This document shows positions 16,901 through 64,000 of a stretch of 64,000 nt of DNA, piece after piece. The stretch lies in assembly GCA_963920595.1 (NCBI GenBank), contig OY986946.1, positions 186,001-250,000 on the forward strand. Direction: 5' to 3'. This stretch comes from Eimeria praecox. Its lineage: Eukaryota. The notes beneath the pieces were generated by a model. It was not told where the DNA came from, made no database searches, and was given only the letters and a program-made list of their open reading frames with translations. Position numbers and translations under genes: made by a program. How positions within the stretch are numbered: the stretch's first letter is position 1; every line of letters begins with the position of its first letter.

Positions 16901-19154
16901 TCTATATATCTGTATCTATATCTATATCTATATCTATATATCTATATCTATATATCTATATCTATATCTATATCTATATCTATATATCTATATCTATATA
17001 TCTATATCTATATATCTATATCTATATCTATATCTATATCTATATCTATATCTATATCTATATCTATATCTATATCTATATCTATATCTATATATCTATA
17101 TCTATATATCTATATCTATATATCTATATCTATATATCTATATCTATATATCTATATCTATATATCTATATCTATATCTATATCTATATATCTATATCTA
17201 TATATCTATATCTATATATCTATATCTATATATCTATATCTATATATCTATATCTATATATCTATATCTATATATCTATATCTATATATCTATATCTATA
17301 TATCTATATCTATATATCTATATCTATATATCTATATCTATATATCTATATCTATATCTATATCTATATCTATATCTATATCTATATCTATATCTATATC
17401 TATATCTATATCTATATCTATATCTATATCTATATCTATATCTATATCTATATCTATATCTATATCTATATCTATATCTATATCTATATCTATATCTATA
17501 TCTATATCTATATATCTATATCTATATATCTATATCTATATATCTATATCTATATATCTATATCTATATATCTATATCTATATATCTATATCTATATATC
17601 TATATCTATATCTATATCTATATATCTATATCTATATATCTATATCTATATATCTATATCTATATCTATATCTATATCTATATCTATATCTATATCTATA
17701 TCTATATCTATATCTATATCTATATCTATATCTATATCTATATCTATATCTATATCTATATCTATATCTATATCTATATCTATATCTATATCTATATCTA
17801 TATCTATATCTATATCTATATCTATATCTATATCTATATCTATATCTATATCTATATCTATATCTATATCTATATCTATATCTATATCTATATCTATATC
17901 TATATCTATATCTATATCTATATCTATATCTATATCTATATCTATATCTATATCTATATCTATATCTATATCTATATCTATATCTATATCTATATCTATA
18001 TCTATATCTATATCTATATCTATATCTATATCTATATCTATATCTATATCTATATCTATATCTATATCTATATCTATATCTATATCTATATCTATATCTA
18101 TATCTATATCTATATCTATATCTATATCTATATCTATATCTATATCTATATCTATATCTATATCTATATCTATATCTATATCTATATCTATATCTATATC
18201 TATATCTATATCTATATCTATATCTATATCTATATCTATATCTATATCTATATCTATATCTATATCTATATCTATATCTATATCTATATCTATATCTATA
18301 TCTATATCTATATCTATATCTATATCTATATCTATATCTATATCTATATCTATATCTATATCTATATCTATATCTATATCTATATCTATATCTATATCTA
18401 TATCTATATCTATATCTATATCTATATCTATATCTATATCTATATCTATATCTATATCTATATCTATATCTATATCTATATCTATATCTATATCTATATC
18501 TATATCTATATCTATATCTATATCTATATCTATATCTATATCTATATCTATATCTATATCTATATCTATATCTATATCTATATCTATATCTATATCTATA
18601 TCTATATCTATATCTATATCTATATCTATATCTATATCTATATCTATATCTATATCTATATCTATATCTATATCTATATCTATATCTATATCTATATCTA
18701 TATCTATATCTATATCTATATCTATATCTATATCTATATCTATATCTATATCTATATCTATATCTATATCTATATCTATATCTATATCTATATCTATATC
18801 TATATCTATATCTATATCTATATCTATATCTATATCTATATCTATATCTATATCTATATCTATATCTATATCTATATCTATATCTATATCTATATCTATA
18901 TCTATATCTATATCTATATCTATATCTATATCTATATCTATATCTATATCTATATCTATATCTATATCTATATCTATATCTATATCTATATCTATATCTA
19001 TATCTATATCTATATCTATATCTATATCTATATCTATATCTATATCTATATCTATATCTATATCTATATCTATATCTATATCTATATCTATATCTATATC
19101 TATATCTATATCTATATCTATATCTATATCTATATCTATATCTATATCTATCTA

Positions 19155-19208
<54 letters not shown>

Positions 19209-40200: not shown

Positions 40201-40440
40201 CACTGCGCGTTGGAGCTCCTAGGCACTTCACATCCTCGCACCTCTGGAAGCTAATTATGTGCATACCTCCTGGTAAGCGTAGAGCGTGACTGGAACGGAA
40301 GATGCGGATTCGACACACCGTGCCTGAATACCGGAGGATTCAAGCTGCATACGTCCGCATGACTCACGGCAGCAATGCACGTAGACCCTCCAGTTATCGG
40401 CTGTAGTCTCTGTGCGCCTATCGACAGAATGAGCTGCTTT

Positions 40441-40474
<34 letters not shown>

Positions 40475-43400
40475 AAGGCAAACTTCAATAACAACTGCAA
40501 AACAATGCACCTAATCGCACGAAGCAGGCTTGTCGGATTGGTTCCCGTTAGCGCGATTTTAGATGCTCGAAATGAAGAAATAGCGCGCATGGAGGATAAG
40601 CACGGCATTACTGAGCTTCAAACCCGCTACTGCGTTACGGTTAACCCTAAACAACACCCGACACACAAACACAAGGCGCACGTCGTCTGCACTCGAAGCA
40701 ACCTAACTACTCTCGCCAAACGGTGTCGTAGTTCTGCGCTATGAGTTCCGCGTCCTTTTGTCATCCCCAATACCTAAGCGGCGAGCAACGGATTCCTCGT
40801 CTCCCCGTGCAAGCTCTATGCGAATTTAAGCAATTCCTGAAGTTCACACAGCCGGATGCTGTTAGTGGCCCCCTTAAAGCAACTAACAGAATAACCGGGC
40901 AGACCGCCAACGCTACTAAATATATGGTACAAATCGCTGCTTAATCTCTGCGTGCTGTTACTACTAGCTAAGGTACCCAGATGGTGACTCGCGAATTCAT
41001 TAAGATCGTTTTTAATGTCGGACTCCGTCTCGCGAACGCATAGCGCATGTCGAGGCATCCGGCATCAGTACACGCCGAAGAAAAGCGCAGATAGACAAAA
41101 CGAGCACCCGCTTTCCCTTTCACAGCAACTGCACAGATCTGCGCGTAGGACACCCTGCATATCCACCTGAGTTCGCATACTGCCTACAGCGGAGCAATAC
41201 CCTCAAACGCTCCGAGCAGATGCCTGTGCTGCTCACAGCATCGTTGGTGCGCAAACCATGACAGGATCGAGGGTGCAAAGAAAGCAAAATACTTCCTAAA
41301 CACTTGTTGATAGGCGGATTCAATTTCATCCAGGGCAAATCAACAAACCCCAGGCCAAATACCGGCCGCAGCAGGAGGCAGCTGGCTCCAAGGGCTGTCC
41401 CTTTCGAATCGCGTCTTGTTGGAAACCAGCACGAATCCAGAATCTACAAGCCATGCAAGCTGTGTCTGCTCGAAAAGGACAGCGTAAGTCCTCTGGTTAA
41501 GCCAAAGTTACGCACCTGTGCTCCGAGCTTGCCTTTTCCTTCAGTGCGAGCATACAGGAGAAGCGACGCTCATAGAATGTTTGTTCTGGCATACGATTTC
41601 CCTATTCCCAAACGTCGTGAACGTCTTTCCTTCGCTACTTCCGCCATCCGCAGAACTGGTGCCATCATGCATCACTGGGCTGGTCCGCAGCCCTAGTAAG
41701 CGTTTTGGGTAAAACAACGCGTAGCCGGCTTTCACCCCTATCACGCGCTGCGCTGCAAATGCAATTAAACGATATTATTCATGACGCTAGATTGTGTCGT
41801 GCTAACCCATACCGCGTACTAAAACGCCTTTCACAAGTGCATGTAGTAGAAGAGCACGAGCAGGGTTCTCGTACAAGCTGGAAGGTGGAACACACAACAA
41901 CGGGCGAACGGTTGGAAGCGATTCGGCTACTTCAGAATTGGTGCAAGCTGCATGGCGTGCTGAACGTGCCGCATTTCCGCTCCTCTGGCAGCGAGTTAGA
42001 TGAATACGTTATGGACAAACCCCCGTGCGATCTCAATGCTCGGGAAGGCATCCTCACACAGCGCCCGTAAACACAAGCATGGGCACCTCGTGCACACGTG
42101 TGAGCACATCGGGTCCTTTGCTCACACAGCCAGGTCTACGAGGCTCCTTTTGCTAGATGGAGGCGAGTCCTTGTAAGGCAAACGAGCCAAGCCCAAACCC
42201 TGAATGTCCTGCAAAACAGTGCTTCTGGCCGCACCGGGTGTGCCGGCGAAATCATTTCTACCTGGCAGCCCAATAAGATGAAGACAAAGAAGTGCGCATC
42301 ACCAGCATGCATGACTTTGCGCTGTATTACGTTGGTCTCGGACATTCACGGAAGCGTGTTACAAACATCCTCTGATAAGTCGGTTAGACCGAAACAATGG
42401 AAGTAGCACATCAAGCTGCACCTGTTCCGAAACGAAAACAGAATGGGTTATTCAGCCAAACAGGGAATACTCTACTGAGTTACGAGTTTCGTTTTCTTTT
42501 GTGTTAACCATGCAAGCGCCCCTTAGGTTTAGAGGTCCACGGCTTCTGTTCTTGCCGGCGTTTTGCTATACGCGTTCTCTGCAGAACAGCGAAGATAGCA
42601 TAACGGGTATTGCACCCAGTCGGCATAGACGTTTGACACGAATCACAGATCAGCCATTCATACCTCGTATTACATACTGCTCGGCACATACACTGCCTCA
42701 TCATTTCATTTGCACTGTCTGCAGTGCTAAACGTGGCCGCATCAAAACATGGCACCCACCGGAGCACTGCTTCCATTAGCAATCAAAGCCCAACGCAGGT
42801 AGGTTAAACCAATCTCCATTTCCTTACACTGTTACTCCAGAAATCTTCACGCATGCACACGCACCTTAGTCCCTGTTATCAGACAGTCTGAGATGCAGAA
42901 GCGCCCATACCTAACCATCCCAAGACCTAAGCTCCAAGTGCATACGTCCTGGACGAAGGGGCGACCCGTGGTAAAGCTACACAAAGCTTCTTCACACCAC
43001 GAGTGCAGGTGCAGGCATACAAACTGCATAGCCCCATGATGCCCTCTCATGTAGTCGCTGCACCGTTTGTGCCATTTACTGATTAGTCGACTCCTACCGG
43101 CAGAGGAAGCAACGTATGGACAAGGGAAGCGAACCATGTGGAGGCTCAGTGTCAACTGCAGAACGAGCCAGCTGGCTGTATGGGATGTTCCTGCCGTAAC
43201 ACGTTTGGTTGGACAAACTAGAGAGAGTCGAAAATGTTCAAGATGTTCACCCGGCATGACGGCACTGCAGTCCGACGGCCTACATCCTCTTCGCTTGTGC
43301 CTACGACGCCGCCGTAGCTTACCGGGCACGAACGCAAATGATGCATTCTTACGTTTCGCCTACTGCAGATACAAAGTAGCTTAAGTGTGAATTTATACCC

Positions 43401-46400
43401 GGGCCATCCCCTTTAACCCCCAGGTTTCCTTTATTTTGTGTTACTCAATAGCCGCAACTGGTGCTACAAATCCTGCTTTCTCCTGTGCGCGTGCCATGCG
43501 GATCGTGTCCACAGCCCTTGGCCGTCATGCTGCAGGCAGCAGTGCAATCTCATCTACTCCTGTCACTCGCCGAAAAGTAGCCATCAGACGCACGCGCAGT
43601 GACCTTCAATCATTGTAGACGACACAAACCAGTGCGCAGTCCGTTTTGACTCCTATTATGTACTGCGCGGCACACGCCCTGACAATTCTGTGTCACTATG
43701 TCTGATGCCAGGCTCTGTGCTACAAGCGCATGCCGGGTATCGGAAATTCCCGCCCCAGCAGACACCAAAAATAAGGGCACAGCTAAAGCAAAGAGGCTTC
43801 AACGTCTGCTGAGCCCGCAATTGCGTGAAGTGCACGCTGGCACATACACAAACATGCCTGATCGCATACAAACTGAACCGTAAACGTCCCCTTAGCCGCG
43901 TAAAAAAACTGGATTTATTTGTGGTGCTATGCACTTTCACAAACACCTCGAGCTGCTGAATGCATCGCCTCGGCGCACTTCTTAAAGCTAGTTTTGTGCA
44001 TACGTGCTGAACAAAAAGCGCACGATCCGAAGCCCGGGAGTCGTAATACTGCACCTGAAGACACGAGCACGCAAATCGCATAACCGTATTATGCGAACGT
44101 ATGCAGGTCCCCTAGCTCCTCGGCTCCTCGGGATATATAAAAACGTTTTCAAGCGTGGCCAGTAAACCAGCCAAAGATAAGGAATGTTTAAGGCGTTGAG
44201 GGAACATCAAGGGAATGGCGACGCGGAGCCTGCTTCCCGTTTGCCTCGGCATGCTACGGTGATTTGCTATCAATGCCTTGCCGTAAGCTAGCCAGAACCC
44301 ACGAAAATAGATAACACATTCATACGGTGCCACTTCGTCGAACACAAGACAGCATGGCTAGTCTCAGCAAACCAGAAGTACCAACCCGCACCACGAGCTC
44401 CGCTTTCCTTTGTGTTAAGTAATCATTATATGGTGGCTTACGGGTGCCGCATTCCTTTGTGCAAATGCTGCATGGCTCTACACAATTCGCGGCTTCGCCG
44501 TTGCTCGCGGCCCCACCTTCTCGAACCCCCATAAAACAAACAATTATTATGCTTACCCTAGGATATCGCCAAAGTTACTAAACGTGGGAGGCAAATGACC
44601 GAGCAGCGAGCAGTTCTTCCTATCCTGTGTGGGGCCGCGGATATAAAGCCTCACCAATTGATTGATAGTCTGTAGTGCCAGTCTGTCTCGCCAGCGCACT
44701 GCGCATTTTCATACACCCCGCCTCTGTAGGTACCAATCAAGAGCCCAGCTACAGCAAAGCAAGATAATCGCTTCTCTTCACGCAGGATTTCCACAAAGCT
44801 GCACGCTGCATAAGTACATCAATACATCCAGGGAGACAGCCTGAGACCTATCCATCCACCAAGCCGAGCCGACGAGTTAGCGTCAAACTGCATAGGCACT
44901 GGCCAAACCATCCCAATACTACAACGCTAGAAAAGGCTTCACCATCCTGTATCACCAGAGCAAAGCGCAAATACTACACACCTTTACAATGCTTACACAT
45001 GCACGCCCCGTAGCGTTCCGTGAGGCATCGCCTATGCTCTCTCAACAGGCCTTCCTGCTCTCTCCGCAAATACCATTTCCCAAGACGGCCCTTCAAGGCA
45101 TGCCCGTGCATATCAACGAGAACGTATATAATGCCCTCAGCCTTCCTAGAAACCCAGGACGAACCGCCGCCCGCACCGTTTGCAGAACCGTACACCCACC
45201 GCCACACGCCATGTTCCCTCAGCACAACCTTTCCCACTTTCTGCATACAGCCGTTCACACACCTGGAATTGCTTCAAACCATCACCATCCCTCTCTTTTC
45301 AAAAGCCAAAATATCTCAAAGTATCGCAAACAGCGAATGCGAACAAACACGCCACTACGGACCACTAACGCACCTCCTGTGAAACACCACACCCACTGCC
45401 ATACACCATACACAGTGATCCCACCTAGCTGCTCCCTCCTAGAACGCCCCCCACCCGTACAGTACAACGCCCATAATCACATCTGCCTCAGAGCAAGCAA
45501 GCCCTACCCATACCACGCGTGCTCACATAAACACCAACACCTCACGATACGCACTTCCTGCGAAACACCACATCCTCTCCCACACACCCTGCACCCTCAA
45601 AACATTCTCCACCCGCCCCCTGCAGACAGTTATCGGTCGGTCCCCATCAACTCCAAATAAAATCCCTGATCACCCTCATCAACCCAAACAAACATCAAAC
45701 CGCCCTCCTGCGTCTGTAGACGTTCCAGCGCACACAGCGCTACTCACCTCCTGTGAAACACCATGTAGATATCTACTCCCACGCAGCATACGCGCTCAAC
45801 GAACGCACCTTCATTCTCTCTCTCAAACTCTCCACTCCTGTACTCCACACTGTCACCACTCACCTTTGCTCCTATTTGCAAAACTAGCACAATCCACCAC
45901 GCCTTTACAGCCACTTCGCTGCGGACAACTAACTCACTTCCTGTGAACAACCATTCATATGGCCCCACACCTTGTTAACGTTAACGCACCATGCTACCCT
46001 CTCTGCACATATCCCGACCCAGGCGAACTACAGGCAACACCTGCCTCTGCTCCTGAATGTAAACCCACAACAAAACATGCGCCTATACAGGAAGGCCGCA
46101 GCAAACGACCTAACTCACCTTCGGTCAAACACAGCACCCACTCTCACACACCATCCGCTCCAAGCCCAACTGCCTCCGCTCTCTGCATGTATCCCTTACC
46201 ATACTCAACAGCCAAAACACCTGCCTCTCGTGCGAAATCGCAGCCTATCCCAAATCATCGTGTCTCTAGTCAGCATGGGCACCCTTGCGCACCTTCTGTA
46301 AAACACCACAACTACGCCAACACAAGCAGCTCATCCTGAAGGCGCCTTCTTGCTCTCCCTTTCTCTCTCTGCCTCCAACCATCTGCCCCCATGCTTAACG

Positions 46401-49400
46401 CCTCCAAGATATGCCTGTGCTGCTGAAGGGGCATCTAGCTGAAATAACCCTCTTCCCTAAAAATCAACAATCAACACAAGCCACCATGCGCACCTTCTGT
46501 GAAACATCACACCTACTCCCGCACACCATGCTCCCTCAACACCCATTGCTGCTCTATCTCCACATACCCATATCCCTCTCCAAAAGCACCTCCTCAAATA
46601 CCTGCCTCTGCGTCCCAGTGTGAGCGCACATCATATCGACAGCCTGCCTAAAAACAATCTGCACCAACCGCTTTGCGCACCCTCTGGAAAACATCACACC
46701 TACGACAATACGCCATGCCCGCTCAGCCTATACCAGCCCCCACACCTCGAAATACTTGACACGTTCGCCACCGCCATCTGCCCTCATGCGCCAAAGTTTC
46801 TCAAACAACACATGCGTACAACACACGCCACTACGGACCACTAACGCACCTCCTGTGAAACACCACACCCACTGCCATACACCATACACAGTCACCCCAC
46901 CTAGCTGCTCCCTCTTAGCACGAACCCCACCCCTACAGTACAACGTTCATCATCACATCCGCCTCAGAGCAAGCAAGCCCTACCCATACCACGCGTGCTC
47001 ACATACACACCAACAGCTCACGATACGCACTTCCTGCGAAACACCACATCCTCGCCCACACACACTGCACCCTCAAAACATTCTCCACCCGCCCCCTGCA
47101 GACAGTTATCGGTCGGTCCCCATCAACTCCAAATAAAATCCCTGATCACCCTCATCAACCCAAACAAACATCAAACCGCCCTCCTGCGTCTGTAGACGTC
47201 CCAGCATACACAACGCTACTCACCTCCTGTGAAACACCATGTAGATATCTACTCCCACGCAGCATACGCGCTCAACGAACGCACCTTCATTCTCTCTCTC
47301 AAACTCTCCACTCCTATACTCCACACTGTCACCACTCACCTCTGCTCCTATTTGCAAACCTAGCACAACCCACACGCCTTTACAGCCACTTCGCTGCGGA
47401 CAACTAGCTCACTTCCTGTGAACAACCATTCCTATTGCCCCACACCTTGTTAACGTTAACGCACCATGCTACCCTCTCTGCACATATCCCGACCCAGGCG
47501 AACTACAGTCAACACCTGCCTCTGCTCCTGAATGTAAACCCACATCAAAACATGCGCCTATACAGGAAGGCCGCAGCAAACGATCTAACTCACCTTCGGT
47601 CAAACACAGCACCCACTCTCACACACCATCCGCTCCAAGCCCACCTGCCTCCGCTCTCTGCATGTATCCCTTACCATACTCAACAGCCAAAACACCTGCC
47701 TCTCGTGCGAAATCGCAGCCTATCCCAAATCATCGTGTCTCTAGTCAGCATGGGCACCCTTGCGCACCTTCTGTAAAACACCACAACTACGCCAACACAA
47801 GCAGCTCATCCTGAATGCGCCTTCTTGCTCTCCCTTTCTCTCTCTGCCTCCAACCATCTGCCCCCATGCTTAACGCCTCCAAGACATGCCTGTGCTGCTG
47901 AATGGGCATCTAGCTGAAGTAACCCTCTTCCCTAAAAATCAACAATCAACACAAGCCACCATGCGCACCTTCTGTGAAACATCACACCTACTCCCGCACA
48001 CCATGCTCCCTCAACACCCATTGCTGCTCTATCTCCACATACCCATATCCCTCTCCAAAAGCACCTCCTCAAATACCTGCCTCTGCGTCGCAGTGTGAGC
48101 GCACATCATATCGACAGCCTGCCTAAACAAGCTGCCCCCAACCGCTTTGCGCACCCTCTGGGAAACATCACACCTGCTACAATACGCCATGCCCGCTCAG
48201 CCTATACCAGCCCCCACACCTCGAAATACTTGACACGTTCGCCACCGCCACCTGCCCTCAAGTGGCAAAGTCTCTCAGATAGCAAACGCGTACAACACAC
48301 GCCACTTCGGACCACTAACGCACCTCCTGTGAAACACCACACCCACTGCCACACACCATACACAGTGATCCCACCTAGCTGCTCCCTCCTAGAACGCCCC
48401 CGCCCCTACAGTACAACGCCCATAATCACATCCGCCTCAGACCAAGCAAGCCCTACCCATACCACGCGTGCTCACATAAACACCAACACCTCACGATACG
48501 CACTTCCTGCGAAACACCACATCCTCTCCCACACGCACTGCACCCTCAAAACATTCCCCTCCTCCCCATGCAGACAGATATCGGTCCTCATCAACTTCAC
48601 ATTAAATCGCTGCTCATCCTCATCAACCCAAACAAACATCAAACCGTCCCCCTGCGTCTGTAGACGTTCCAGGGTACACAGCGCTACTCACCTCCTGTGA
48701 AACACCATGTAGATATCTACTCCCACGCAGCATACGCGCTCAACGAACGCACCTTCATTCTCTCTCTCAAACTCTCCACTCCTATACTCCACACTGTCAC
48801 CACTCACCTCTGCTCCTATTTGCAAACCTAGCACAACCCACACGCCTTTACAGCCACTTCGCTGCGGACAACTAGCTCACTTCCTGTGAACAACCATTCC
48901 TATTGCCCCACACCTTGTTAACGTTAACGCACCATGCTACCCTCTCTGCACATACCCCGACCCAGGCGAACTAGAGTCAACACCTGCCTCTGCTCCTGAA
49001 TGTAAACCCACAACAAAACATGCGCCTATACAGGAAGGCCGCAGCAAACGATCTAACTCACCTTCGGTCAAAACACAGCACCCACTCTCACACCATCCGC
49101 TCCAAGCCCACCTGCCTCCGCTCTCTGCATGTATCCCTTACCATACTCAACAGCCATAACACCTGCCTCTCGTACGAAATCGCAACCTATCACAAATCAT
49201 CGGTGTCTCTAGTCAGCATGGGCACCCTTGCGCACCTTCTGTAAAACACCACAACTACGCCAACACAAGCAGCTCATCCTGAATGCACCTTCTTGCTCTC
49301 CCTTTCTCTATCTGCCTCCAACCATCTGCCCCCATGCTTAACGCCTCCAAGATATGCCTGCGCTGCTGAAGGGGCATCTAGCTGAAATAACCCTCTTCCC

Positions 49401-52400
49401 TAAAAATCAACAATCAACACAAGCCACCATGCGCACCTTCTGTGAAACATCACACCTACTCCCGCACACCATGCTCCCTCAACACCCATTGCTGCTCTAT
49501 CTCCACATACCCATATTCCTCTCCAAAAGCACCTCCTCGAATACCTGCCTCTGCGTCGCATTGTGAGCGCACATCATATCGACAGCCTGCCTAAAAACAA
49601 TCTGCACCAACCGCTTTGCGCACCCTCTGGAAGACATTCCACCAACGACAATACGCCATGCCCGCTCAGCCTATACCAGCCCCCACACCTCGAAATACTT
49701 GACACGTTCGCCACCGCCACCTGCTCTCAAGTGGCAAAGTCTCTCAGATAGCAAATGCGTACAACACACGCCACTTCGGACCACTAACGCACCTCCTGTG
49801 AAACACCACACCCACTGCCACACACCATACACAGTGATCCCACCTAGCTGCTCCCTCCTAGAACGCCCCCGCCCCTACAGTACAACGCCCATAATCACAT
49901 CCGCCTCAGAGCAAGCAAGCCCTACCCATACCACGCGTGCTCACATAAACACCAACACCTCACGATACGCACTTCCTGCGAAACACCACATCCTCGCCCA
50001 CACGCACTGCACCCTCAAAACATTCTCCTCCTCCCCGTGCAGACAGATATCGGTCGGTCCCCATCAACTCCAAATAAAATCCCTGATCACCCTCATCAAC
50101 CCAAACAAACATCAAACCGCCCTCCTGCGTCTGTAGACGTTCCAGCATACACAACGCTACTCACCTCCTGTGAAACACCATGTAGATATCTACTCCCACG
50201 CAGCATACGCGCTCAACGAACGCACCTTCATTCTCTCTCTCAAACTCTCCACTCCTATACTCCACACTGTCACCACTCACCTCTGCTCCTATTTGCAAAC
50301 CTAGCACAACCCACACGCCTTTACAGCCACTTCGCTGCGGACAACTAGCTCACTTCCTGTGAACAACCATTCCTATTGCCCCACACCTTGTTAACGTTAA
50401 CGCACCATGCTACCCTCTCTGCACATATCCCGACCCAGGCGAACTACAGTCAACACCTGCCTCTGCTCCTGAATGTAAACCCACATCAAAACATGCGCCT
50501 ATACAGGAAGGCCGCAGCAAACGACCTAACTCACCTTCGGTCAAACACAGCACCCACTCTCACACACCATCCGCTCCAAGCCCACCTGCCTCCGCTCTCT
50601 GCATGTATCCCTTACCATACTCAACAGCCAAAACACCTGCCTCTCGTGCGAAATCGCAGCCTATCCCAAATCATCGTGTCTCTAGTCAGCATGGGCACCC
50701 TTGCGCACCTTCTGTAAAACACCACAACTACGCCAACACAAGCAGCTCATCCTGAATGCGCCTTCTTGCTCTCCCTTTCTCTATCTGCCTCCAGCCATCT
50801 GCCCCCATGCTTAACGCCTCCAAGACATGCCTGCGCTGCTGAATGGGCATCTAGCTGAAATAACCCTCTTCCCTAAAAATCAACAATCAACACAAGCCAC
50901 CATGCGCACCTTCTGTGAAACATCACACCTACTCCCGCACACCATGCTCCCTCAACACCCATTGCTGCTCTATCTCCACATACCCATATCCCTCTCCAAA
51001 AGCACCTCCTCAAATACCTGCCTCTGCGTCCCAGTGCAAGCGCACATCATATCGACAGCCTGCCTAAACAAGCTGCCCCCAACCGCTTTGCGCACCCTCT
51101 GGAAAACATCACACCTGCTACAATACGCCATGCCCGCTCAGCCTATACCAGCCCCCACACCTCGAAATACTTGACACGATCGCCACCGTCATCTGCCCTC
51201 ATGTGCCAAAGTTTCTCAAACAACACATGCGTACAAACACGCCACTTCGGACCACCAACACACCTCCTGTGAAACACCACACCCACTGCCATACACCATA
51301 CACAGTCACCCCACCTAGCTGCTCCCTCTTAGCACGCCCCCCACCCCTACAGTACAACGTTCATCATCACATCCGCCTCAGACCAAGCAAGCCCTACCCA
51401 TACCACGCGTGCTCCCATAAACACCAACACCTCACGATACGCACTTCCTGCGAAACACCACATCCTCGCCCACACACCCTGCACCCTCAAAACATTCTCC
51501 ACCCGCCCCCTGCAGACAGTTATCGGTCGGTCCCCATCAACTCCAAATAAAATCCCTGATCACCCTCATCAACCCAAACAAACATCAAACCGCCCTCCTG
51601 CGTCTGTAGACGTTCCAGCGTACACAGCGCTACTCACCTCCTGTGAAACACCATGTAGATATCTACTCCCACGCAGCATACGCGCTCAACGAACGCACCT
51701 TCATTCTCTCTCTCAAACTCTCCACTCCTATACTCCACACTGTCACCACTCACCTTTGCTCCTATTTGCAAACCTAGCACAATCCACCACGCCTTTACAG
51801 CCACTTCGCGGCGGACAACTAGCTCACTTCCTGTGAACAACCATTCCTAATGCCCCACACCTTGTTAACGTTAACGCACCATGCTACCCTCTCTGCACAT
51901 ACCCCGACCCAGGCGAACTAGAGTCAACACCTGCCTCTGCTCCTGAATGCAAACCCACATCAAAACATGCGCCTATACAGGAAGGCCGCAGCAAACGATC
52001 TAACTCACCTTCGGTCAAACACAGCACCCACTCTCACACACCATCCGCTCCAAGCCCACCTGCCTCCGCTCTCTGCATGTGTCCCTTACCATACTCAACA
52101 GCCATAACACCTGCCTCTCGTACGAAATCGCAACCTATCCCAAATCGTCGGTGTCTCTAGTCAGCATGGGCACCCTTGCGCACCTTCTGTAAAACACCAC
52201 AACTACGCCAGCACATGCAGCTTATCCTGAATGCGCCTTCTTGCTCTCCCTTCTTATATCTGCCTCCAGCCATCTGCCCCCATGCTTAACGCCTCCAAGA
52301 CATGCCTGCGCTGCTGAATGGGCATCTAGCTGAAATAACCCTCTTCCCTAAAAATCAACAATCAACAGAAGCCACCATGCGCACCTTCTGTGAAACATCA

Positions 52401-55400
52401 CACCTACTCCCGCACACCATGCTCCCTCAACACCCATTGCTGCTCTATCTCCACATACCCATATCCCTCTCCAAAAGCACCTCCTCAAATACCTGCCTCT
52501 GCGTCCCAGTGCAAGCGCACATCATATCGACAGCCTGCCTAAACAAGCTGCCCCCAACCGCTTTGCGCACCCTCTGGAAAACATCACACCTGCTACAATA
52601 CGCCATGCCCGCTCAGCCTATACCAGCCCCCACACCTCGAAATACTTGACACGATCGCCACCGTCATCTGCCCTCATGTGCCAAAGTTTCTCAAACAACA
52701 CATGCGTACAAACACGCCACTTCGGACCACCAACACACCTCCTGTGAAACACCACACCCACTGCCATACACCATACACAGTCACCCCACCTAGCTGCTCC
52801 CTCTTAGCACGCCCCCCTCCCCTACAGTACAACGTTCATCATCACATCCGCCTCAGACCAAGCAAGCCCTACCCATACCACGCGTGCTCACATAAACACC
52901 AACACCTCACGATACGCACTTCCTGCGAAACACCACATCCTCTCCCACACACACTGCACCCTCAAAACATTCTCCACCCGCCCCCTGCAGACAGTTATCG
53001 GTCGGTCCCCATCAACTCCAAATAAAATCCCTGATCACCCTCATCAACCCAAACAAACATCAAACCGCCCTCCTGCGTCTGTAGACGTTCCAGCGTACAC
53101 AGCGCTACTCACCTCCTGTGAAACACCATGTAGATATCTACTCCCACGCAGCATACGCGCTCAACGAACGCACCTTCATTCTCTCTCTCAAACTCTCCAC
53201 TCCTATACTCCACACTGTCACCACTCACCTTTGCTCCTATTTGCAAACCTAGCACAATCCACCACGCCTTTACAGCCACTTCGCGGCGGACAACTAGCTC
53301 ACTTCCTGTGAACAACCATTCCTAATGCCCCACACCTTGTTAACGTTAACGCACCATGCTACCCTCTCTGCACATACCCCGACCCAGGCGAAATAGAGTC
53401 AACACCTGCCTCTGCTCCTGAATGCAAACCCACATCAAAACATGCGCCTATACAGGAAGGCCGCAGCAAACGATCTAACTCACCTTCTGTCAAACACAGC
53501 ACCCACTCTCACACACCATCCGCTCCAAGCCCACCTGCCTCCGCTCTCTGCATGTATCCCTTACCATACTCAACAGCCATAACACCTGCCTCTCGTACGA
53601 AATCGCAACCTATCACAAATCGTCGGTGTCTCTAGTCAGCATGGGCACCCTTGAGCACCTGCTGTAAAACACCACAACTACGCCAGCACATGCAGCTTAT
53701 CCTGAATGCGCCTTCTTGCTCTCCCTTCTTATATCTGCCTCCAGCCATCTGCCCCCATGCTTAACGCCTCCAAGACATGCCTGCGCTGCTGAATGGGCAT
53801 CTAGCTGAAATAACCCTCTTCCCTAAAAATCAACAATCAACAGAAGCCACCATGCGCACCTTCTGTGAAACATCACACCTACTCCCGCACACCATGCTCC
53901 CTCAACACCCATTGCTGCTCTATCTCCACATACCCATATCCCTCTCCAAAAGCACCTCCTCAAATACCTGCCTCTGCGTCCCAGTGCAAGCGCACATCAT
54001 ATCGACAGCCTGCCTAAACAAGCTGCCCCCAACCGCTTTGCGCACCCTCTGGAAAACATCACACCTGCTACAATACGCCATGCCCGCTCAGCCTATACCA
54101 GCCCCCACACCTCGAAATACTTGACACGTTCGCCACCGCCATCTGCCCTCATGTGCCAAAGTTTCTCAAACAACACATGCGTACAAACACGCCACTTCGG
54201 ACCACCAACACACCTCCTGTGAAACACCACACCCACTGCCATACACCATACACAGTCACCCCACCTAGCTGCTCCCTCTTAGCACGCCCCCCACCCCTAC
54301 AGTACAACGTTCATCATCACATCCGCCTCAGACCAAGCAAGCCCTACCCATACCACGCGTGCTCACATAAACACCAACACCTCACGATACGCACTTCCTG
54401 CGAAACACCACATCCTCGCCCACACACACTGCACCCTCAAAACATTCTCCACCCGCCCCCTGCAGACAGTTATCGGTCGGTCCCCATCAACTCCAAATAA
54501 AATCCCTGATCACCCTCATCAACCCAAACAAACATCAAACCGCCCTCCTGCGTCTGTAGACGTTCCAGCGTACACAACGCTACTCACCTCCTGTGAAACA
54601 CCATGTAGATATCTACTCCCACGCAGCATACGCGCTCAACGAACGCACCTTCATTCTCTCTCTCAAACTCTCCACTCCTATACTCCACACTGTCACCACT
54701 CACCTCTGCTCCTATTTGCAAACCTAGCACAATCCACCACGCCTTTACAGCCACTTCGCGGCGGACAACTAGCTCACTTCCTGTGAACAACCATTCCTAT
54801 TGCCCCACACCTTGTTAACGTTAACGCACCATGCTACCCTCTCTGCACATACCCCGACCCAGGCGAACTAGAGTCAACACCTGCCTCTGCTCCTGAATGC
54901 AAACCCACATCAAAACATGCGCCTATACAGGAAGGCCGCAGCAAACGATCTAACTCACCTTCGGTCAAACACAGCACCCACTCTCACACACCATCCGCTC
55001 CAAGCCCACCTGCCTCCGCTCTCTGCATGTATCCCTTACCATACTCAACAGCCATAACACCTGCCTCTCGTGCGAACTCGCAGCCTATCCCAAATCATCG
55101 GTGTCTCTAGTCAGCATGGGCACCCTTGCGCACCTTCTGTAAAACACCACAACTACGCCAGCACATGCAGCTTATCCTGAAGGCGCCTTGTTGCTCTCCC
55201 TTTCTCTATCTGCCTCCAGCCATCTGCCCCCATGCTTAACGCCTCCAAGACATGCCTGTGCTGCTGAAGGGGCATCTAGCTGAAATAACCCTCTTCCCTA
55301 AAAATCAACAATCAACACAAGCCACCATGCGCACCTTCTGTGAAACATCACACCTACTCCCGCACACCATGCTCCCTCAACACCCATTGCTGCTCTATCT

Positions 55401-58400
55401 CCACATACCCATATTCCTCTCCAAAAGCACCTCCTCAAATACCTGCCTCTGCGTCGCATTGTGAGCGCACATCATATCGACAGCCTGCCTAAAAACAATC
55501 TGCACCAACCGCTTTGCGCACCCTCTGGAAGACATTCCACCAACGACAATACGCCATGCCCGCTCAGCCTATACCAGCCCCCACACCTCGAAATACTTGA
55601 CACGTTCGCCACCGCCACCTGCTCTCAAGTGGCAAAGTCTCTCAGATAGCAAATGCGTACAACACACGCCACTTCGGACCACTAACGCACCTCCTGTGAA
55701 ACACCACACCCACTGCCACACACCACACACAGTGATCCCACCTAGCTGCTCCCTCCTAGAACGCCCCCGCCCCTACAGTACAACGCCCATAATCACATCC
55801 GCCTCAGACCAAGCAAGCCCTACCCATACCACGCGTGCTCACATAAACACCAACACCTCACGATACGCACTTCCTGCGAAACACCACATCCTCTCCCACA
55901 CGCACTGCACCCTCAAAACATTCTCCTCCTCCCCATGCAGACAGATATCGGTCCTCATCAACTTCACATTAAATCCCTGCTCATCCTCATCAACCCAAAC
56001 AAACATCAAACCGTCCCCCTGCGTCTGTAGACGTTCCAGCGTACACAGCGCTACTCACCTCCTGTGAAACACCATGTAGATATCTACTCCCACGCAGCAT
56101 ACGCGCTCAACGAACGCACCTTCATTCTCTCTCTCAAACTCTCCACTCCTATACTCCACACTGTCACCACTCACCTCTGCTCCTATTTGCAAACCTAGCA
56201 CAACCCACACGCCTTTACAGCCACTTCGCTGCGGACAACTAGCTCACTTCCTGTGAACAACCATTCCTAATGCCCCACACCTTGTTAACGTTAACGCACC
56301 ATGCTACCCTCTCTGCACATATCCCGACCCAGGCGAACTACAGTCAACACCTGCCTCTGCTCCTGAATGCAAACCCACATCAAAACATGCGCCTATACAG
56401 GAAGGCCGCAGCAAACGATCTAACTCACCTTCGGTCAAACACAGTACCCACTCTCACACACCATCCGCTCCAAGCCCACCTGCCTCCGCTCTCTGCATGT
56501 ATCCCTTACCATACTCAACAGCCAAAACACCTGCCTCTCGTGCGAAATCGCAGCCTATCCCAAATCATCGTGTCTCTAGTCAGCATGGGCACCCTTGCGC
56601 ACCTTCTGTAAAACACCACAACTACGCCAACACAAGCAGCTCATCCTGAATGCGCCTTCTTGCTCTCCCTTTCTCTATCTGCCTCCAGCCATCTGCCCCC
56701 ATGCTTAACGCCTCCAAGACATGCCTGCGCTGCTGAATGGGCATCTAGCTGAAATAACCCTCTTCCCTAAAAATCAACAATCAACAGAAGCCACCATGCG
56801 CACCTTCTGTGAAACATCACACCTACTCCCGCACACCATGCTCCCTCAACACCCATTGCTGCTCTATCTCCACATACCCATATCCCTCTCCAAAAGCACC
56901 TCCTCAAATACCTGCCTCTGCGTCCCAGTGCAAGCGCACATCATATCGACAGCCTGCCTAAACAAGCTGCCCCCAACCGCTTTGCGCACCCTCTGGAAAA
57001 CATCACACCTGCTACAATACGCCATGCCCGCTCAGCCTATACCAGCCCCCACACCTCGAAATACTTGACACGATCGCCACCGTCATCTGCCCTCATGTGC
57101 CAAAGTTTCTCAAACAACACATGCGTACAAACACGCCACTTCGGACCACCAACACACCTCCTGTGAAACACCACACCCACTGCCATACACCATACACAGT
57201 CACCCCACCTAGCTGCTCCCTCTTAGCACGCCCCCCACCCCTACAGTACAACGTTCATCATCACATCCGCCTCAGACCAAGCAAGCCCTACCCATACCAC
57301 GCGTGCTCACATAAACACCAACACCTCACGATACGCACTTCCTGCGAAACACCACATCCTCTCCCACACACACTGCACCCTCAAAACATTCTCCACCCGC
57401 CCCCTGCAGACAGTTATCGGTCGGTCCCCATCAACTCCAAATAAAATCCCTGATCACCCTCATCAACCCAAACAAACATCAAACCGCCCTCCTGCGTCTG
57501 TAGACGTTCCAGCGTACACAGCGCTACTCACCTCCTGTGAAACACCATGTAGATATCTACTCCCACGCAGCATACGCGCTCAACGAACGCACCTTCATTC
57601 TCTCTCTCAAACTCTCCACTCCTATACTCCACACTGTCACCACTCACCTTTGCTCCTATTTGCAAACCTAGCACAATCCACCACGCCTTTACAGCCACTT
57701 CGCGGCGGACAACTAGCTCACTTCCTGTGAACAACCATTCCTAATGCCCCACACCTTGTTAACGTTAACGCACCATGCTACCCTCTCTGCACATACCCCG
57801 ACCCAGGCGAAATAGAGTCAACACCTGCCTCTGCTCCTGAATGCAAACCCACATCAAAACATGCGCCTATACAGGAAGGCCGCAGCAAACGATCTAACTC
57901 ACCTTCGGTCAAACACAGTACCCACTCTCACACACCATCCGCTCCAAGCCCACCTGCCTCCGCTCTCTGCATGTGTCCCTTACCATACTCAACAGCCAAA
58001 ACACCTGCCTCTCGTGCGAAATCGCAGCCTATCCCAAATCATCGTGTCTCTAGTCAGCATGGGCACCCTTGCGCACCTTCTGTAAAACACCACAACTACG
58101 CCAACACAAGCAGCTCATCCTGAATGCGCCTTCTTGCTCTCCCTTTCTCTATCTGCCTCCAGCCATCTGCCCCCATGCTTAACGCCTCCAAGACATGCCT
58201 GCGCTGCTGAATGGGCATCTAGCTGAAATAACCCTCTTCCCTAAAAATCAACAATCAACAGAAGCCACCATGCGCACCTTCTGTGAAACATCACACCTAC
58301 TCCCGCACACCATGCTCCCTCAACACCCATTGCTGCTCTATCTCCACATACCCATATCCCTCTCCAAAAGCACCTCCTCAAATACCTGCCTCTGCGTCCC

Positions 58401-61400
58401 AGTGCAAGCGCACATCATATCGACAGCCTGCCTAAACAAGCTGCCCCCAACCGCTTTGCGCACCCTCTGGAAAACATCACACCTGCTACAATACGCCATG
58501 CCCGCTCAGCCTATACCAGCCCCCACACCTCGAAATACTTGACACGATCGCCACCGTCATCTGCCCTCATGTGCCAAAGTTTCTCAAACAACACATGCGT
58601 ACAAACACGCCACTTCGGACCACCAACACACCTCCTGTGAAACACCACACCCACTGCCATACACCATACACAGTCACCCCACCTAGCTGCTCCCTCTTAG
58701 CACGCCCCCCACCCCTACAGTACAACGTTCATCATCACATCCGCCTCAGACCAAGCAAGCCCTACCCATACCACGCGTGCTCACATAAACACCAACACCT
58801 CACGATACGCACTTCCTGCGAAACACCACATCCTCTCCCACACACACTGCACCCTCAAAACATTCTCCACCCGCCCCCTGCAGACAGTTATCGGTCGGTC
58901 CCCATCAACTCCAAATAAAATCCCTGATCACCCTCATCAACCCAAACAAACATCAAACCGCCCTCCTGCGTCTGTAGACGTTCCAGCGTACACAGCGCTA
59001 CTCACCTCCTGTGAAACACCATGTAGATATCTACTCCCACGCAGCATACGCGCTCAACGAACGCACCTTCATTCTCTCTCTCAAACTCTCCACTCCTATA
59101 CTCCACACTGTCACCACTCACCTTTGCTCCTATTTGCAAACCTAGCACAATCCACCACGCCTTTACAGCCACTTCGCGGCGGACAACTAGCTCACTTCCT
59201 GTGAACAACCATTCCTAATGCCCCACACCTTGTTAACGTTAACGCACCATGCTACCCTCTCTGCACATACCCCGACCCAGGCGAACTAGAGTCAACACCT
59301 GCCTCTGCTCCTGAATGCAAACCCACATCAAAACATGCGCCTATACAGGAAGGCCGCAGCAAACGATCTAACTCACCTTCGGTCAAACACAGCACCCACT
59401 CTCACACACCATCCGCTCCAAGCCCACCTGCCTCCGCTCTCTGCATGTGTCCCTTACCATACTCAACAGCCATAACACCTGCCTCTCGTACGAAATCGCA
59501 ACCTATCCCAAATCGTCGGTGTCTCTAGTCAGCATGGGCACCCTTGCGCACCTTCTGTAAAACACCACAACTACGCCAGCACATGCAGCTTATCCTGAAT
59601 GCGCCTTCTTGCTCTCCCTTCTTATATCTGCCTCCAGCCATCTGCCCCCATGCTTAACGCCTCCAAGACATGCCTGCGCTGCTGAATGGGCATCTAGCTG
59701 AAATAACCCTCTTCCCTAAAAATCAACAATCAACACAAGCCACCATGCGCACCTTCTGTGAAACATCACACCTACTCCCGCACACCATGCTCCCTCAACA
59801 CCCATTGCTGCTCTATCTCCACATACCCATATCCCTCTCCAAAAGCACCTCCTCAAATACCTGCCTCTGCGTCCCAGTGCAAGCGCACATCATATCGACA
59901 GCCTGCCTAAACAAGCTGCCCCCAACCGCTTTGCGCACCCTCTGGAAAACATCACACCTGCTACAATACGCCATGCCCGCTCAGCCTATACCAGCCCCCA
60001 CACCTCGAAATACTTGACACGATCGCCACCGTCATCTGCCCTCATGTGCCAAAGTTTCTCAAACAACACATGCGTACAAACACGCCACTTCGGACCACCA
60101 ACACACCTCCTGTGAAACACCACACCCACTGCCATACACCATACACAGTCACCCCACCTAGCTGCTCCCTCTTAGCACGCCCCCCACCCCTACAGTACAA
60201 CGTTCATCATCACATCCGCCTCAGACCAAGCAAGCCCTACCCATACCACGCGTGCTCACATAAACACCAACACCTCACGATACGCACTTCCTGCGAAACA
60301 CCACATCCTCTCCCACACACACTGCACCCTCAAAACATTCTCCACCCGCCCCCTGCAGACAGTTATCGGTCGGTCCCCATCAACTCCAAATAAAATCCCT
60401 GATCACCCTCATCAACCCAAACAAACATCAAACCGCCCTCCTGCGTCTGTAGACGTTCCAGCGTACACAGCCCTACTCACCTCCTGTGAAACACCATGTA
60501 GATATCTACTCCCACGCAGCATACGCGCTCAACGAACGCACCTTCATTCTCTCTCTCAAACTCTCCACTCCTATACTCCACACTGTCACCACTCACCTCT
60601 GCTCCTATTTGCAAACCTAGCACAATCCACCACGCCTTTACAGCCACTTCGCGGAGGACAACTAGCTCACTTCCTGTGAACAACCATTCCTATTGCCCCA
60701 CACCTTGTTAACGTTAACGCACCATGCTACCCTCTCTGCACATACCCCGACCCAGGCGAAATAGAGTCAACACCTGCCTCTGCTCCTGAATGCAAACCCA
60801 CATCAAAACATGCGCCTATACAGGAAGGCCACAGCAAACGATCTAACTCACCTTCTGTCAAACACAGCACCCACTCTCACACACCATCCGCTCCAAGCCC
60901 ACCTGCCTCCGCTCTCTGCATGTGTCCCTTACCATACTCAACAGCCATAACACCTGCCTCTCGTACGAAATCGCAACCTATCCCAAATCGTCGGTGTCTC
61001 TAGTCAGCATGGGCACCCTTGCGCACCTTCTGTAAAACACCACAACTACGCCAGCACATGCAGCTTATCCTGAATGCGCCTTCTTGCTCTCCCTTCTTAT
61101 ACCTGCCTCCAGCCATCTGCCCCCATGCTTAACGCCTCCAAGACATGCCTGCGCTGCTGAATGGGCATCTAGCTGAAATAACCCTCTTCCCTAAAAATCA
61201 ACAATCAACACAAGCCACCATGCGCACCTTCTGTGAAACATCACACCTACTCCCGCACACCATGCTCCCTCAACACCCACTGCTGCTCTATCTCCACATA
61301 CCCATATCCCTCTCCAAAAGCACCTCCTCAAATACCTGCCTCTGCGTCCCAGTGCAAGCGCACATCATATCGACAGCCTGCCTAAACAAGCTGCCCCCAA

Positions 61401-63979
61401 CCGCTTTGCGCACCCTCTGGGAAACATCACACCTGCTACAGTACGCCATGCCCGCTCAGCCTATACCAGCCCCCACACCTCGAAATACTTGACACGATCG
61501 CCACCGTCATCTGCCCTCATGTGCCAAAGTTTCTCAAACAACACATGCGTACAAACACGCCACTTCGGACCACCAACACACCTCCTGTGAAACACCACAC
61601 CCACTGCCATACACCATACACAGTCACCCCACCTAGCTGCTCCCTCTTAGCACGCCCCCCACCCCTACAGTACAACGTTCATCATCACATCCGCCTCAGA
61701 CCAAGCAAGCCCTACCCATACCACGCGTGCTCACATAAACACCAACACCTCACGATACGCACTTCCTGCGAAACACCACATCCTCTCCCACACACACTGC
61801 ACCCTCAAAACATTCTCCACCCGCCCCCTGCAGACAGTTATCGGTCGGTCCCCATCAACTCCAAATAAAATCCCTGATCACCCTCATCAACCCAAACAAA
61901 CATCAAACCGCCCTCCTGCGTCTGTAGACGTTCCAGCGTACACAGCCCTACTCACCTCCTGTGAAACACCATGTAGATATCTACTCCCACGCAGCATACG
62001 CGCTCAACGAACGCACCTTCATTCTCTCTCTCAAACTCTCCACTCCTATACTCCACACTGTCACCACTCACCTCTGCTCCTATTTGCAAACCTAGCACAA
62101 TCCACCACGCCTTTACAGCCACTTCGCGGCGGACAACTAGCTCACTTCCTGTGAACAACCATTCCTAATGCCCCACACCTTGTTAACGTTAACGCACCAT
62201 GCTACCCTCTCTGCACATACCCCGACCCAGGCGAAATAGAGTCAACACCTGCCTCTGCTCCTGAATGCAAACCCACATCAAAACATGCGCCTATACAGGA
62301 AGGCCGCAGCAAACGATCTAACTCACCTTCTGTCAAACACAGCACCCACTCTCACACACCATCCGCTCCAAGCCCACCTGCCTCCGCTCTCTGCATGTGT
62401 CCCTTACCATACTCAACAGCCATAACACCTGCCTCTCGTACGAAATCGCAACCTATCCCAAATCGTCGGTGTCTCTAGTCAGCATGGGCACCCTTGAGCA
62501 CCTTCTGTAAAACACCACAACTACGCCAGCACATGCAGCTTATCCTGAATGCGCCTTCTTGCTCTCCCTTCTTATATCTGCCTCCAGCCATCTGCCCCCA
62601 TGCTTAACGCCTCCAAGACATGCCTGCGCTGCTGAATGGGCATCTAGCTGAAATAACCCTCTTCCCTAAAAATCAACAATCAACACAAGCCACCATGCGC
62701 ACCTTCTGTGAAACATCACACCTACTCCCGCACACCATGCTCCCTCAACACCCATTGCTGCTCTATCTCCACATACCCATATCCCTCTCCAAAAGCACCT
62801 CCTCAAATACCTGCCTCTGCGTCCCAGTGCAAGCGCACATCATATCGACAGCCTGCCTAAACAAGCTGCCCCCAACCGCTTTGCGCACCCTCTGGAAAAC
62901 ATCACACCTGCTACAATACGCCATGCCCGCTCAGCCTATACCAGCCCCCACACCTCGAAATACTTGACACGATCGCCACCGTCATCTGCCCTCATGTGCC
63001 AAAGTTTCTCAAACAACACATGCGTACAAACACGCCACTTCGGACCACCAACACACCTCCTGTGAAACACCACACCCACTGCCATACACCATACACAGTC
63101 ACCCCACCTAGCTGCTCCCTCTTAGCACGCCCCCCACCCCTACAGTACAACGTTCATCATCACATCCGCCTCAGACCAAGCAAGCCCTACCCATACCACG
63201 CGTGCTCACATAAACACCAACACCTCACGATACGCACTTCCTGCGAAACACCACATCCTCTCCCACACACACTGCACCCTCAAAACATTCTCCACCCGCC
63301 CCCTGCAGACAGTTATCGGTCGGTCCCCATCAACTCCAAATAAAATCCCTGATCACCCTCATCAACCCAAACAAACATCAAACCGCCCTCCTGCGTCTGT
63401 AGACGTTCCAGCGTACACAGCCCTACTCACCTCCTGTGAAACACCATGTAGATATCTACTCCCACGCAGCATACGCGCTCAACGAACGCACCTTCATTCT
63501 CTCTCTCAAACTCTCCACTCCTATACTCCACACTGTCACCACTCACCTCTGCTCCTATTTGCAAACCTAGCACAATCCACCACGCCTTTACAGCCACTTC
63601 GCGGCGGACAACTAGCTCACTTCCTGTGAACAACCATTCCTATTGCCCCACACCTTGTTAACGTTAACGCACCATGCTACCCTCTCTGCACATACCCCGA
63701 CCCAGGCGAAATAGAGTCAACACCTGCCTCTGCTCCTGAATGCAAACCCACATCAAAACATGCGCCTATACAGGAAGGCCGCAGCAAACGATCTAACTCA
63801 CCTTCTGTCAAACACAGCACCCACTCTCACACACCATCCGCTCCAAGCCCACCTGCCTCCGCTCTCTGCATGTGTCCCTTACCATACTCAACAGCCATAA
63901 CACCTGCCTCTCGTACGAAATCGCAACCTATCCCAAATCGTCGGTGTCTCTAGTCAGCATGGGCACCCTTGAGCACCTT
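639..63979 (-). CDS. Putative interior of a giant gene made of ~130 three-nucleotide (single-codon) microexons; predicted product is an E/K/R-rich charged helix. No start or stop seen in the window.
   Basis: Minus-strand YAG|NNN|GTRnG motif once per repeat unit. Old-array exons (plus-strand coordinate of lowest base, minus-strand triplet): 44004 CAC, 42946 GAC, 41181 GCA, 40267 GAG, 39184 AAA, 38244 AGA, 37533 AGA, 35989 CAA, 35050 AGA, 34008 GAC, 33330 AGC, 32356 GCA, 31734 GCA, 30745 GAC, 29683 GAA, 29048 AGA, 28065 GAA, 27134 CAA, 26259 AAC, 25471 GAA, 24567 AGA, 23568 AAA, 22718 GAA, 22089 AGA, 20988 GAA, 20135 AAA, 19280 AAA, 10253 GAA, 9201 CAA, 7588 GCA, 6532 CTA, 5782 GGA, 4770 CGG, 4300 GCA, 3264 ATG, 2698 GAA, 1710 AAC, 639 AGA. 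Young array, first unit: 46681 AGG, 46494 AAG, 46293 AAG, (46119 AAG, acceptor CG), 45938 GAA, 45748 GAG, 45555 GAA, 45374 GAG, repeated every ~1475 bp. Splicing is inferred, not shown. Confidence 0.6.
10940..19208. repeat. 8.3-kb (TATATC)n/(GATATA)n microsatellite with interrupted blocks containing TATATATC variants; begins with (TC)n and ends with (TC)n(TA)n
   Basis: Read directly. Pure tracts at ~11240-11665, 12690-13190, 13570-14125, 15045-16745 and 17655-19150 alternate with blocks of mixed 6- and 8-nt units. Confidence 0.99.
19509..19775 (+). repeat. Local direct duplication of ~119 bp (19509-19627 and 19657-19775)
   Basis: Both copies start ccggacgcgaatgaataacacattcataaa and end ttgcttgtcggtgtg; offset 148 bp. 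Confidence 0.9.
21421..21442 (+). repeat. Short interstitial telomere-like tract, 3 heptamers (CCTAAAC CCTGAAC CCTAAAC)
   Basis: cctaaaccctgaaccctaaacc is the reverse complement of TT(T/C)AGGG repeats; it interrupts a motif that is continuous in sibling units. Confidence 0.6.
40444..40472. repeat. (GA)14 microsatellite
   Basis: Read directly. Confidence 0.95.
45020..45345. repeat. Junction zone: ~2 degenerate ~184-bp monomers at the edge of the young array
   Basis: 45030-45230 aligns by eye to monomers 7-8 of the 1475-bp unit (atgctctctcaacaggcc vs atgctccctcaacaccc; gcaccgtttgcagaaccgtacacc vs gcaccctctggaaaacatcacacc). Confidence 0.65.
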
Positions 63980-64000
63980 CTGTAAAACACCACAACTACG
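45345..64000. repeat. Young tandem array, 1,475-bp unit (~12.7 copies, continues past the window end); each unit is a higher-order repeat of 8 diverged ~184-bp monomers
   Basis: Marker atgcctg(t/c)gctgctgaa at 46411, 47886, 49354, 50827, 52302, 53777, 55252, 56721, 58195, 59670, 61145, 62620 (steps 1468-1475). Monomer core cacNNNctgtgaaacaccacacctactccc recurs with spacings 181, 193, 190, 181, 174, 201, 187, 169 bp. The + strand is strongly C/A-rich and G-poor. Confidence 0.98.

Follow-up and report, generated by a model that had tools for sequence, protein, structure and literature searches.

The stretch of DNA analysed here (the window) comprises 64,000 nt of Eimeria praecox contig OY986946.1, positions 186,001 to 250,000, and carries two tandem arrays in which a splice acceptor and a splice donor lie three nucleotides apart, again and again, on the minus strand. 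The window is probably the interior of a single minus-strand coding gene, enlarged by two rounds of cassette duplication, whose single codons spliced together in phase 0 would yield a single alpha-helix (SAH) of ~90 residues and at least 49 further helical residues. Judged from the DNA, it is very likely that the sites are spliced coding exons. The two repeat families are independent and show a measurable signal of selection: the acceptor AG, the donor GT and a G at donor position +5 are retained whilst the neighbouring sequence and the enclosed triplets diverge.

The younger array (45374..64000, minus strand) has a period of 1475 nt and contains 12.6 units, each composed of eight monomers, in which an intron (166-198 nt) is joined to a candidate exon of 3 nt. 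The original prediction had described these as the monomers of a satellite, each holding a 3-nt exon. Its eight types of site were all recovered on the minus strand at the places it gave, its coordinates being those of the last base of each triplet. A probe search of this strand also returned the 102 acceptor-NNN-donor sites it had counted (first bases 45376-63979), with AG and GT both intact at 93 and the donor +5 G kept as well at 90. All nine broken sites are copies of site 3 in which AG has become CG. In the last unit, and with residues as read in phase 0, site 0 (46681..46683; AGG, Arg) and site 1 (46494..46496; AAG, Lys) are intact in 12/12 copies each. Site 2 (46293..46295; AAG, Lys) has a G>T change at donor +5 in the copies with first bases at 63979, 62504 and 53661, and site 3 (46119..46121; AAG, Lys) has lost its AG in 9/13 copies, remaining intact at 63804, 62329, 60854 and 53486. 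Site 4 (45938..45940; GAA, Glu), site 5 (45748..45750; GAG, Glu) and site 6 (45555..45557; GAA, Glu) are intact in 13/13 copies. Site 7 (45374..45376; GAG, Glu) is the last intact site of the array, and its donor reads GTGTGT in 8/13 copies.

The eight introns of a young unit are only 42-62% alike in pairwise comparison, yet all eight begin with GT and end with AG behind a pyrimidine-rich acceptor; they are G-rich, with 36-43% G and 11-15% C. A single unit holds seven CAG-NNN-GT[AG][AC]G sites, whereas 2000 dinucleotide shuffles contained 0.41 on average and never more than 3, so the pattern of sites is not a product of copy number. When the gap in TTNNCAG-N(l)-GT[AG] was varied over the whole array, 91 occurrences were found on the minus strand at l = 3 against 0-26, due to repeated unit copies, at every other length from 0 to 12, and none at any of these lengths on the plus strand. 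Variable columns among recent copies (1/24 in exons, 1/16 in AG, 0/16 in GT and 101/1222 in introns) are too few for selection to be demonstrated directly from them.

Selection on the splice dinucleotides is instead evident in an older array that the original prediction had overlooked, and it is this array which lends support to the micro-exon reading. The old array (118..45049, minus strand) is made of ~950-nt units, with 41 anchor sites and 39 units aligned, and continues past the left end of the window. It adjoins the young array on the same strand through two decayed young monomers (45034..45373, minus strand; monomer profile matches at E = 5e-9 and 1e-9), where a site at 45179 lacks its AG. 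The two arrays have no mutual similarity at E<1e-5. Outside the young array and a microsatellite, YAG-N(l)-GTAYG was found at 43 places on the minus strand when l = 3; any other length between 0 and 15 gave 1-8, and the plus strand 0-4. Each old unit has one such candidate exon, here called the A site. Thirty seven are intact (639..44006, minus strand), with first bases at 44006, 42948, 40269, 39186, 38246, 37535, 35991, 35052, 34010, 33332, 32358, 31736, 30747, 29685, 29050, 28067, 27136, 26261, 25473, 24569, 23570, 22720, 22091, 20990, 20137, 19282, 10255, 9203, 7590, 6534, 5784, 4772, 4302, 3266, 2700, 1712 and 641. Units were first anchored on these intact sites; a profile search then added three broken ones (44898, 42010 and 8235, minus strand), which are included in the counts that follow.

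Old units share a mean pairwise identity of 49%. A tree of the units, for which the A sites were masked, is star-like: end branches measure ~0.45 changes per site, and 3/36 inner branches are supported. The units therefore count as near-independent trials. Against this divergence, AG and GT are jointly kept at the A site in 35/38 aligned units, whereas 971 control words of the same shape are jointly retained at a median of 19% and a best of 52% (P = 3e-23 against the median dinucleotide retention, P = 2e-9 against the best other pair). The donor +5 base is G in 37/38 stacked A sites. The triplet itself is kept at 42-66%, i.e. no better than the mean background of 65%, and this conservation of fixed borders around a free interior is the pattern of a 3-nt exon. 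Introns of the old array measure 60-9024 nt (median 851). The microsatellite, 8.3 kb of (TCTATA)n at 10951..19207, was inserted into one old unit and gave rise to a 9-kb intron that is still flanked by two intact A sites, 19282 and 10255.

A second site, B, lies ~63 or 120-145 nt after the A position. Twelve B sites have a strong donor (1573..43872, minus strand; first bases 43872, 41877, 41183, 39051, 37415, 36464, 34933, 33187, 30613, 9140, 8172 and 1575), and their codons are mostly hydrophobic. AG and GT are both present in 17/37 units, which places B within the top 1% of control words, and the +3 base is A at 11/17 sites with intact borders versus 2/20 with broken ones (P = 0.0013). Strong B sites occur in units whose A site is broken or fails to align (42010, 8235, 41183 and 36464). 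B sites are nonetheless less certain as exons than A sites. Three further candidates were left out of the exon count, namely site C, 75 nt before A (AG+GT in 9/33 units), and site D (3/29), both at background level, and a high-scoring triplet at 33254 whose position is not conserved.

The candidate exons thus number 90-93 in the young array, 37 at A and 12 at B, giving 139-142 in total, or ~420 coding bases out of 63.4 kb. For the young array, the readings in three phases given by the original prediction were reproduced, and all three are stop-free. A sites joined alone by script give 0, 0 and 1 stops in phases 0, 1 and 2, respectively; joining A and B sites together gives 0, 5 and 2, and adding sites C and D leaves the open phase unchanged. 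Phase 0, as originally proposed, is therefore the sole open reading, provided that B sites are exons and share a frame with the young array. The 49 codons which would follow downstream of the young array, from A and B sites, include 23 charged residues and no Pro, and are compatible with a helix or coiled coil.

The original prediction had joined the young sites into (RKK[K]EEEE)n, with eight sites per unit. A closer inspection of the 13 units indicates that the repeat is likely seven codons (RKKEEEE) and not eight, because the adjacent Lys sites 2 (donor +5 G>T) and 3 (AG>CG) are weakened in a complementary manner: nine units have the change at site 3 only, three at site 2 only, one has neither and none has both (Fisher's test, P = 0.014, assuming independent units). 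If the +5 T abolishes inclusion, 12/13 units would read RKKEEEE. The only changed triplet in the young array, CAG in the site-2 copy with first base 53661, falls in a copy that also carries the +5 T, as might be seen in a dead exon. The predicted phase-0 product of 90 residues has 148 pairs of opposite charge at i+3/i+4 compared with 25 of like charge, and shuffles of it have a mean of 85 opposite pairs and a maximum of 107 (n = 5000), although the copies are not independent and the chance per unit is 11-20%. It is rich in Glu, Lys and Arg with opposite charges at i+3/i+4, as in ER/K helices. The predictor Waggawagga gives its highest SAH score to the heptad EEEEKKK (PMC5812594), and AEEEKRK repeats of 98 residues proved on measurement to be stable monomeric helices (PMC5347031). 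The further suggestion that helix periodicity sets the higher-order period of the array is weak, and the tuning of a spacer by copy number is likewise speculative.

The history envisaged is one of growth through tandem copying of a cassette made of an intron and a codon. The ~950-nt units would stem from an old round and the ~184-nt monomers from a later one, after which a block of eight monomers would have been amplified recently to ~13 copies. The young array would encode an RKKEEEE repeat of ~90 residues, a putative SAH spacer of ~13.5 nm at 1.5 Å per residue, which the 49 downstream codons would extend as helix or coiled coil, and the gene would run past both ends of the window. As all exons are 3 nt long, the skipping or loss of any of them preserves the frame, and such tolerance would account for the persistence of a gene in so many pieces and for the death or replacement of single sites. 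A fuller version, which we offer tentatively and hold to be somewhat short of probable, is that of a rod of >140 residues encoded one codon per exon over >63 kb, built by cassette duplication, in which complementary splice-site loss under selection for the helix holds the repeat at seven residues.

Several observations weigh against this interpretation. The complementarity of sites 2 and 3 represents two mutation events copied through the array, so that P = 0.014 overstates it, and the donor +5 G>T is a weakening rather than a proven loss. Rearranging the same residues gives an equally favourable order of charge blocks in 20% of cases for the 7-mer and 11% for the 8-mer. In addition, three A sites are broken. 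The choice of phase hinges on B sites, since phase 1 is open with A sites alone, and a control at consensus column 680 of the old unit, with a TAG triplet, has AG..GT in 13/30 units, near to the 17/37 of B. That phase 0 has no stops is in itself weak evidence, with a neutral chance of 0.07-0.24, and although 30/37 A-site residues are D, E, K, R, Q or A, this lies inside the range of control purine triplets. Neither the amino acid mix of the A sites nor their lack of stops can be distinguished from neutral drift, and both were discarded as coding evidence. Within the window there is no start, stop or conventional exon. None of 18 open reading frames (ORFs) of ~150 aa or more matched Pfam; they were chosen among the 113 ORFs that reach 90 aa in 1-45400, with microsatellite ORFs excluded. 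Rfam gave no match at the gathering score. A canonical branch point is not conserved, YTRAY being present at -45 to -10 in only 4/37 A acceptors and near the 3′ end in 2/8 young introns, which speaks against efficient splicing.

Contigs from three sequencing runs, belonging to two studies and none of them recorded as RNA, were compared with the window. Among the pieces listed, those of runs X1 and X2 are identical to the window over 27000-45387, and the young array is at raised depth in all three runs; it is therefore not an assembly artefact. One X2 contig, on the part common to all copies, stands at 13.1x single-copy depth and X1 contigs at 8.9-9.9x, which suggests ~13 copies, nearly all inside the window, although contig depth is a poor measure of copy number and the estimate is rough. 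Over 27000-46860 the three runs behave as DNA, with flat cover and no joint at predicted introns. One of them may be the source of the window itself, and the match is not independent support for function. Run contigs have loose ends at 30599, 33165, 38228, 38261, 43241, 45574 and 46490, of which that at 45574 may be the upstream border of the young array. Seven of the eight loose-end motifs checked are not present in the window, and thus related units of both arrays exist beyond it or elsewhere in the genome. A small genome is suggested by the total length of the X1 contigs, 67.5 million letters.

The same structure could serve another function. If the exons are real and exist to be skipped in combination, as in the micro-exon genes (MEGs) of flatworms, the locus would generate length and sequence variants of, for example, a surface or secreted protein. 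Every site has a length of 3 nt and leaves the frame untouched, splice-site strength differs between sites and copies, and MEG proteins are described as differing by single residues through exon skipping (PMC7653826). However, A sites are kept in 35/38 units and most young sites are invariant, as for constitutive exons, and little diversity would be gained from a low-complexity repeat as near-perfect as the young array. We regard this reading as unlikely. Slightly less likely again is that real exons are translated in phase 1 (or 2), or that the arrays do not share a frame or a gene, in which case the product would be rich in Arg, Gly and Glu or in Arg and Lys and would not form an SAH. This is favoured by the openness of the young array in every phase and of the A sites alone in phase 1, and by a 1.37-kb gap with dead sites between the arrays. 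The stops added by the 12 B sites (five in phase 1, two in phase 2) speak against it, as do the stop that phase 2 acquires from A sites alone and the abutment of the arrays on one strand.

Two further explanations would add no codons at all. One is stepwise (recursive, zero-length) removal of a giant intron, or splicing of a non-coding RNA. Five of the eight young triplets end in AG and would leave an AG|GT junction, and the AG>CG change at site 3 leaves exactly such a junction. In contrast, 3/8 young, 36/37 A and 12/12 B triplets have no AG end; the retained AG lies 3 nt before GT, where a ratchet site would have AG followed directly by GT; and the exact 3-nt spacing, beside which gaps of 2 and 4 nt stay at background, is indicative of a reading frame. 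This explanation we consider very unlikely. The other is that the arrays are non-genic satellite DNA, or a long-dead gene, with a protein-binding motif that resembles splice sites. Diverged monomers within a near-identical larger unit are the hallmark of a higher-order satellite, and the young array has this form (42-62% between monomers versus 93.5-99.7% between units); moreover, there is an 8.3-kb microsatellite inside, no Pfam or Rfam match and no clear branch point. Yet a satellite would be expected in high copy number and without strand-specific coding signal, whereas ~13 copies by rough depth are too few for a large satellite, and the splice signals occur on the minus strand only. Two unrelated repeat families both keep a pyrimidine tract and AG, a variable 3-nt gap and a GT with +5 G on the same strand, and their AG/GT retention is far above that of all control words. 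A non-genic origin is accordingly the most improbable of the alternatives, and the young array would form part of a gene longer than the window instead of a free-standing satellite.

The coding-gene interpretation can be set beside known systems. A MEG has been defined operationally as having at least seven exons, at least half of them <70 nt and divisible by three (PMC7653826). The window has 139-142 predicted 3-nt sites, as deduced from DNA and with the gene ends outside it, and runs of at least seven intact 3-nt sites occur throughout the young array, which agrees with the definition as sequence structure. MEGs of Schistosoma, Echinococcus and Hymenolepis (PMC7653826, PMC10526429) similarly have consecutive micro-exons divisible by three separated by much longer introns, tolerate skipping without change of frame and are difficult for gene prediction or read mapping. 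They differ in having exons of 3-81 nt and in encoding secreted flatworm proteins (PMC7653826), whereas at this locus all of the ~140 consecutive candidate exons would be one codon long, the introns are paralogues of one another in tandem and a charged helix is the predicted product. In structure the locus thus resembles MEGs; it is not assigned to the flatworm MEG family. ER/K SAH domains, such as those of myosin VI/X and INCENP and the de novo EK3 and EK2R1 (PMC5347031, PMC5812594, PMC4571873), share with the predicted heptad its four Glu and three Lys/Arg, and ~90 predicted residues are near the 98-residue designs that match natural SAH lengths (PMC5347031). Here the helix is a prediction only, and no published SAH with a separate exon for every codon was found. 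In avian fast troponin T, the P exons are likewise multiple, small, charged in a repeating motif and used to lengthen a variable segment, but they number up to seven, each encodes a multi-residue His/Glu motif and they are switched developmentally (PMC7581897). Plant ultra-short micro-exons of 1-15 nt (PMC8831610) and the 3-nt exon of Drosophila homothorax (PMC7392893) provide RNA evidence that exons of 1-3 nt can be spliced; these are isolated or paired in otherwise ordinary genes rather than in long tandem runs. Literature searches on micro-exons or short exons in Eimeria, and on micro-exons with long reads in Toxoplasma, gave no match. No gene with long runs of single-codon exons was found, although most subscription papers and supplements fell outside the search and absence is not thereby established.

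Were the locus spliced as predicted, ~0.7% of 63 kb would be coding and ~140 consecutive 3-nt exons would each have to be defined and joined, far in excess of the isolated or paired ultra-short exons of the systems compared. It would constitute a natural test of how the spliceosome, the presumed user of these sites, defines exons too short for both splice-site complexes. On the fuller version put forward above, the protein sequence would evolve through the switching on and off of splice sites as well as through codon substitution, with weakened sites putatively skipped, and rod length would shift by unequal crossover between intron-sized units. If spliced as predicted, the locus would also exemplify clearly how tandem duplication can bring about intron gain en masse, and how selection for protein periodicity can act through splice sites. 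Neither gene finders nor read aligners would detect such genes, which would be annotated as satellite DNA, and a class of proteins may for this reason be missing from annotations.

A pattern scan of metagenome contigs returned six loci, none of them related to the window as far as inspected. One, on an AT-rich contig, has two arms (L001:800-2800, minus strand, and L001:4300-6310, plus strand) of ~60-nt AG-NNN-GT units with 23 strict sites per arm. Its introns are ~57 nt long, with a CTCAC branch-like motif, and the triplets are highly variable; we take these introns to be fungal-like. The arms are inverted copies with small indels and probably a fold-back read artefact, and an apparent peak of 1-nt exons arises from a self-complementary motif. 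From its sequence, the locus is likely an independent array of single-codon exons, and the architecture therefore seems to recur outside the window. The other five (L002-L006) are 48-/51-nt minisatellites with near-invariant triplets, were rejected as support and are probably unrelated.

Some minor features were also noted. At consensus columns 660-690 of the old unit (e.g. 20414, 19695 and 2128, minus strand) a pyrimidine-rich stretch is followed by AG-TAG-GT; AG..GT is present in 13/30 units and AGGT in 10/31, somewhat over background, and the stretch may be due to chance or be a weak ratchet-like site. The motif TGCATGCA occurs 10 times against 4.4 expected, within repeats that are not independent, which is too weak a signal to point to a taxon. 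Old units occur in long and short forms that differ by a ~72-nt deletion after the A site; by eye, short units tend to carry GAA and long units AGA, hinting at an ancestral Glu/Arg dimer, which the tree does not resolve. Finally, a recent internal duplication of 148 nt, 89% alike, lies inside one old unit at 19509-19779.

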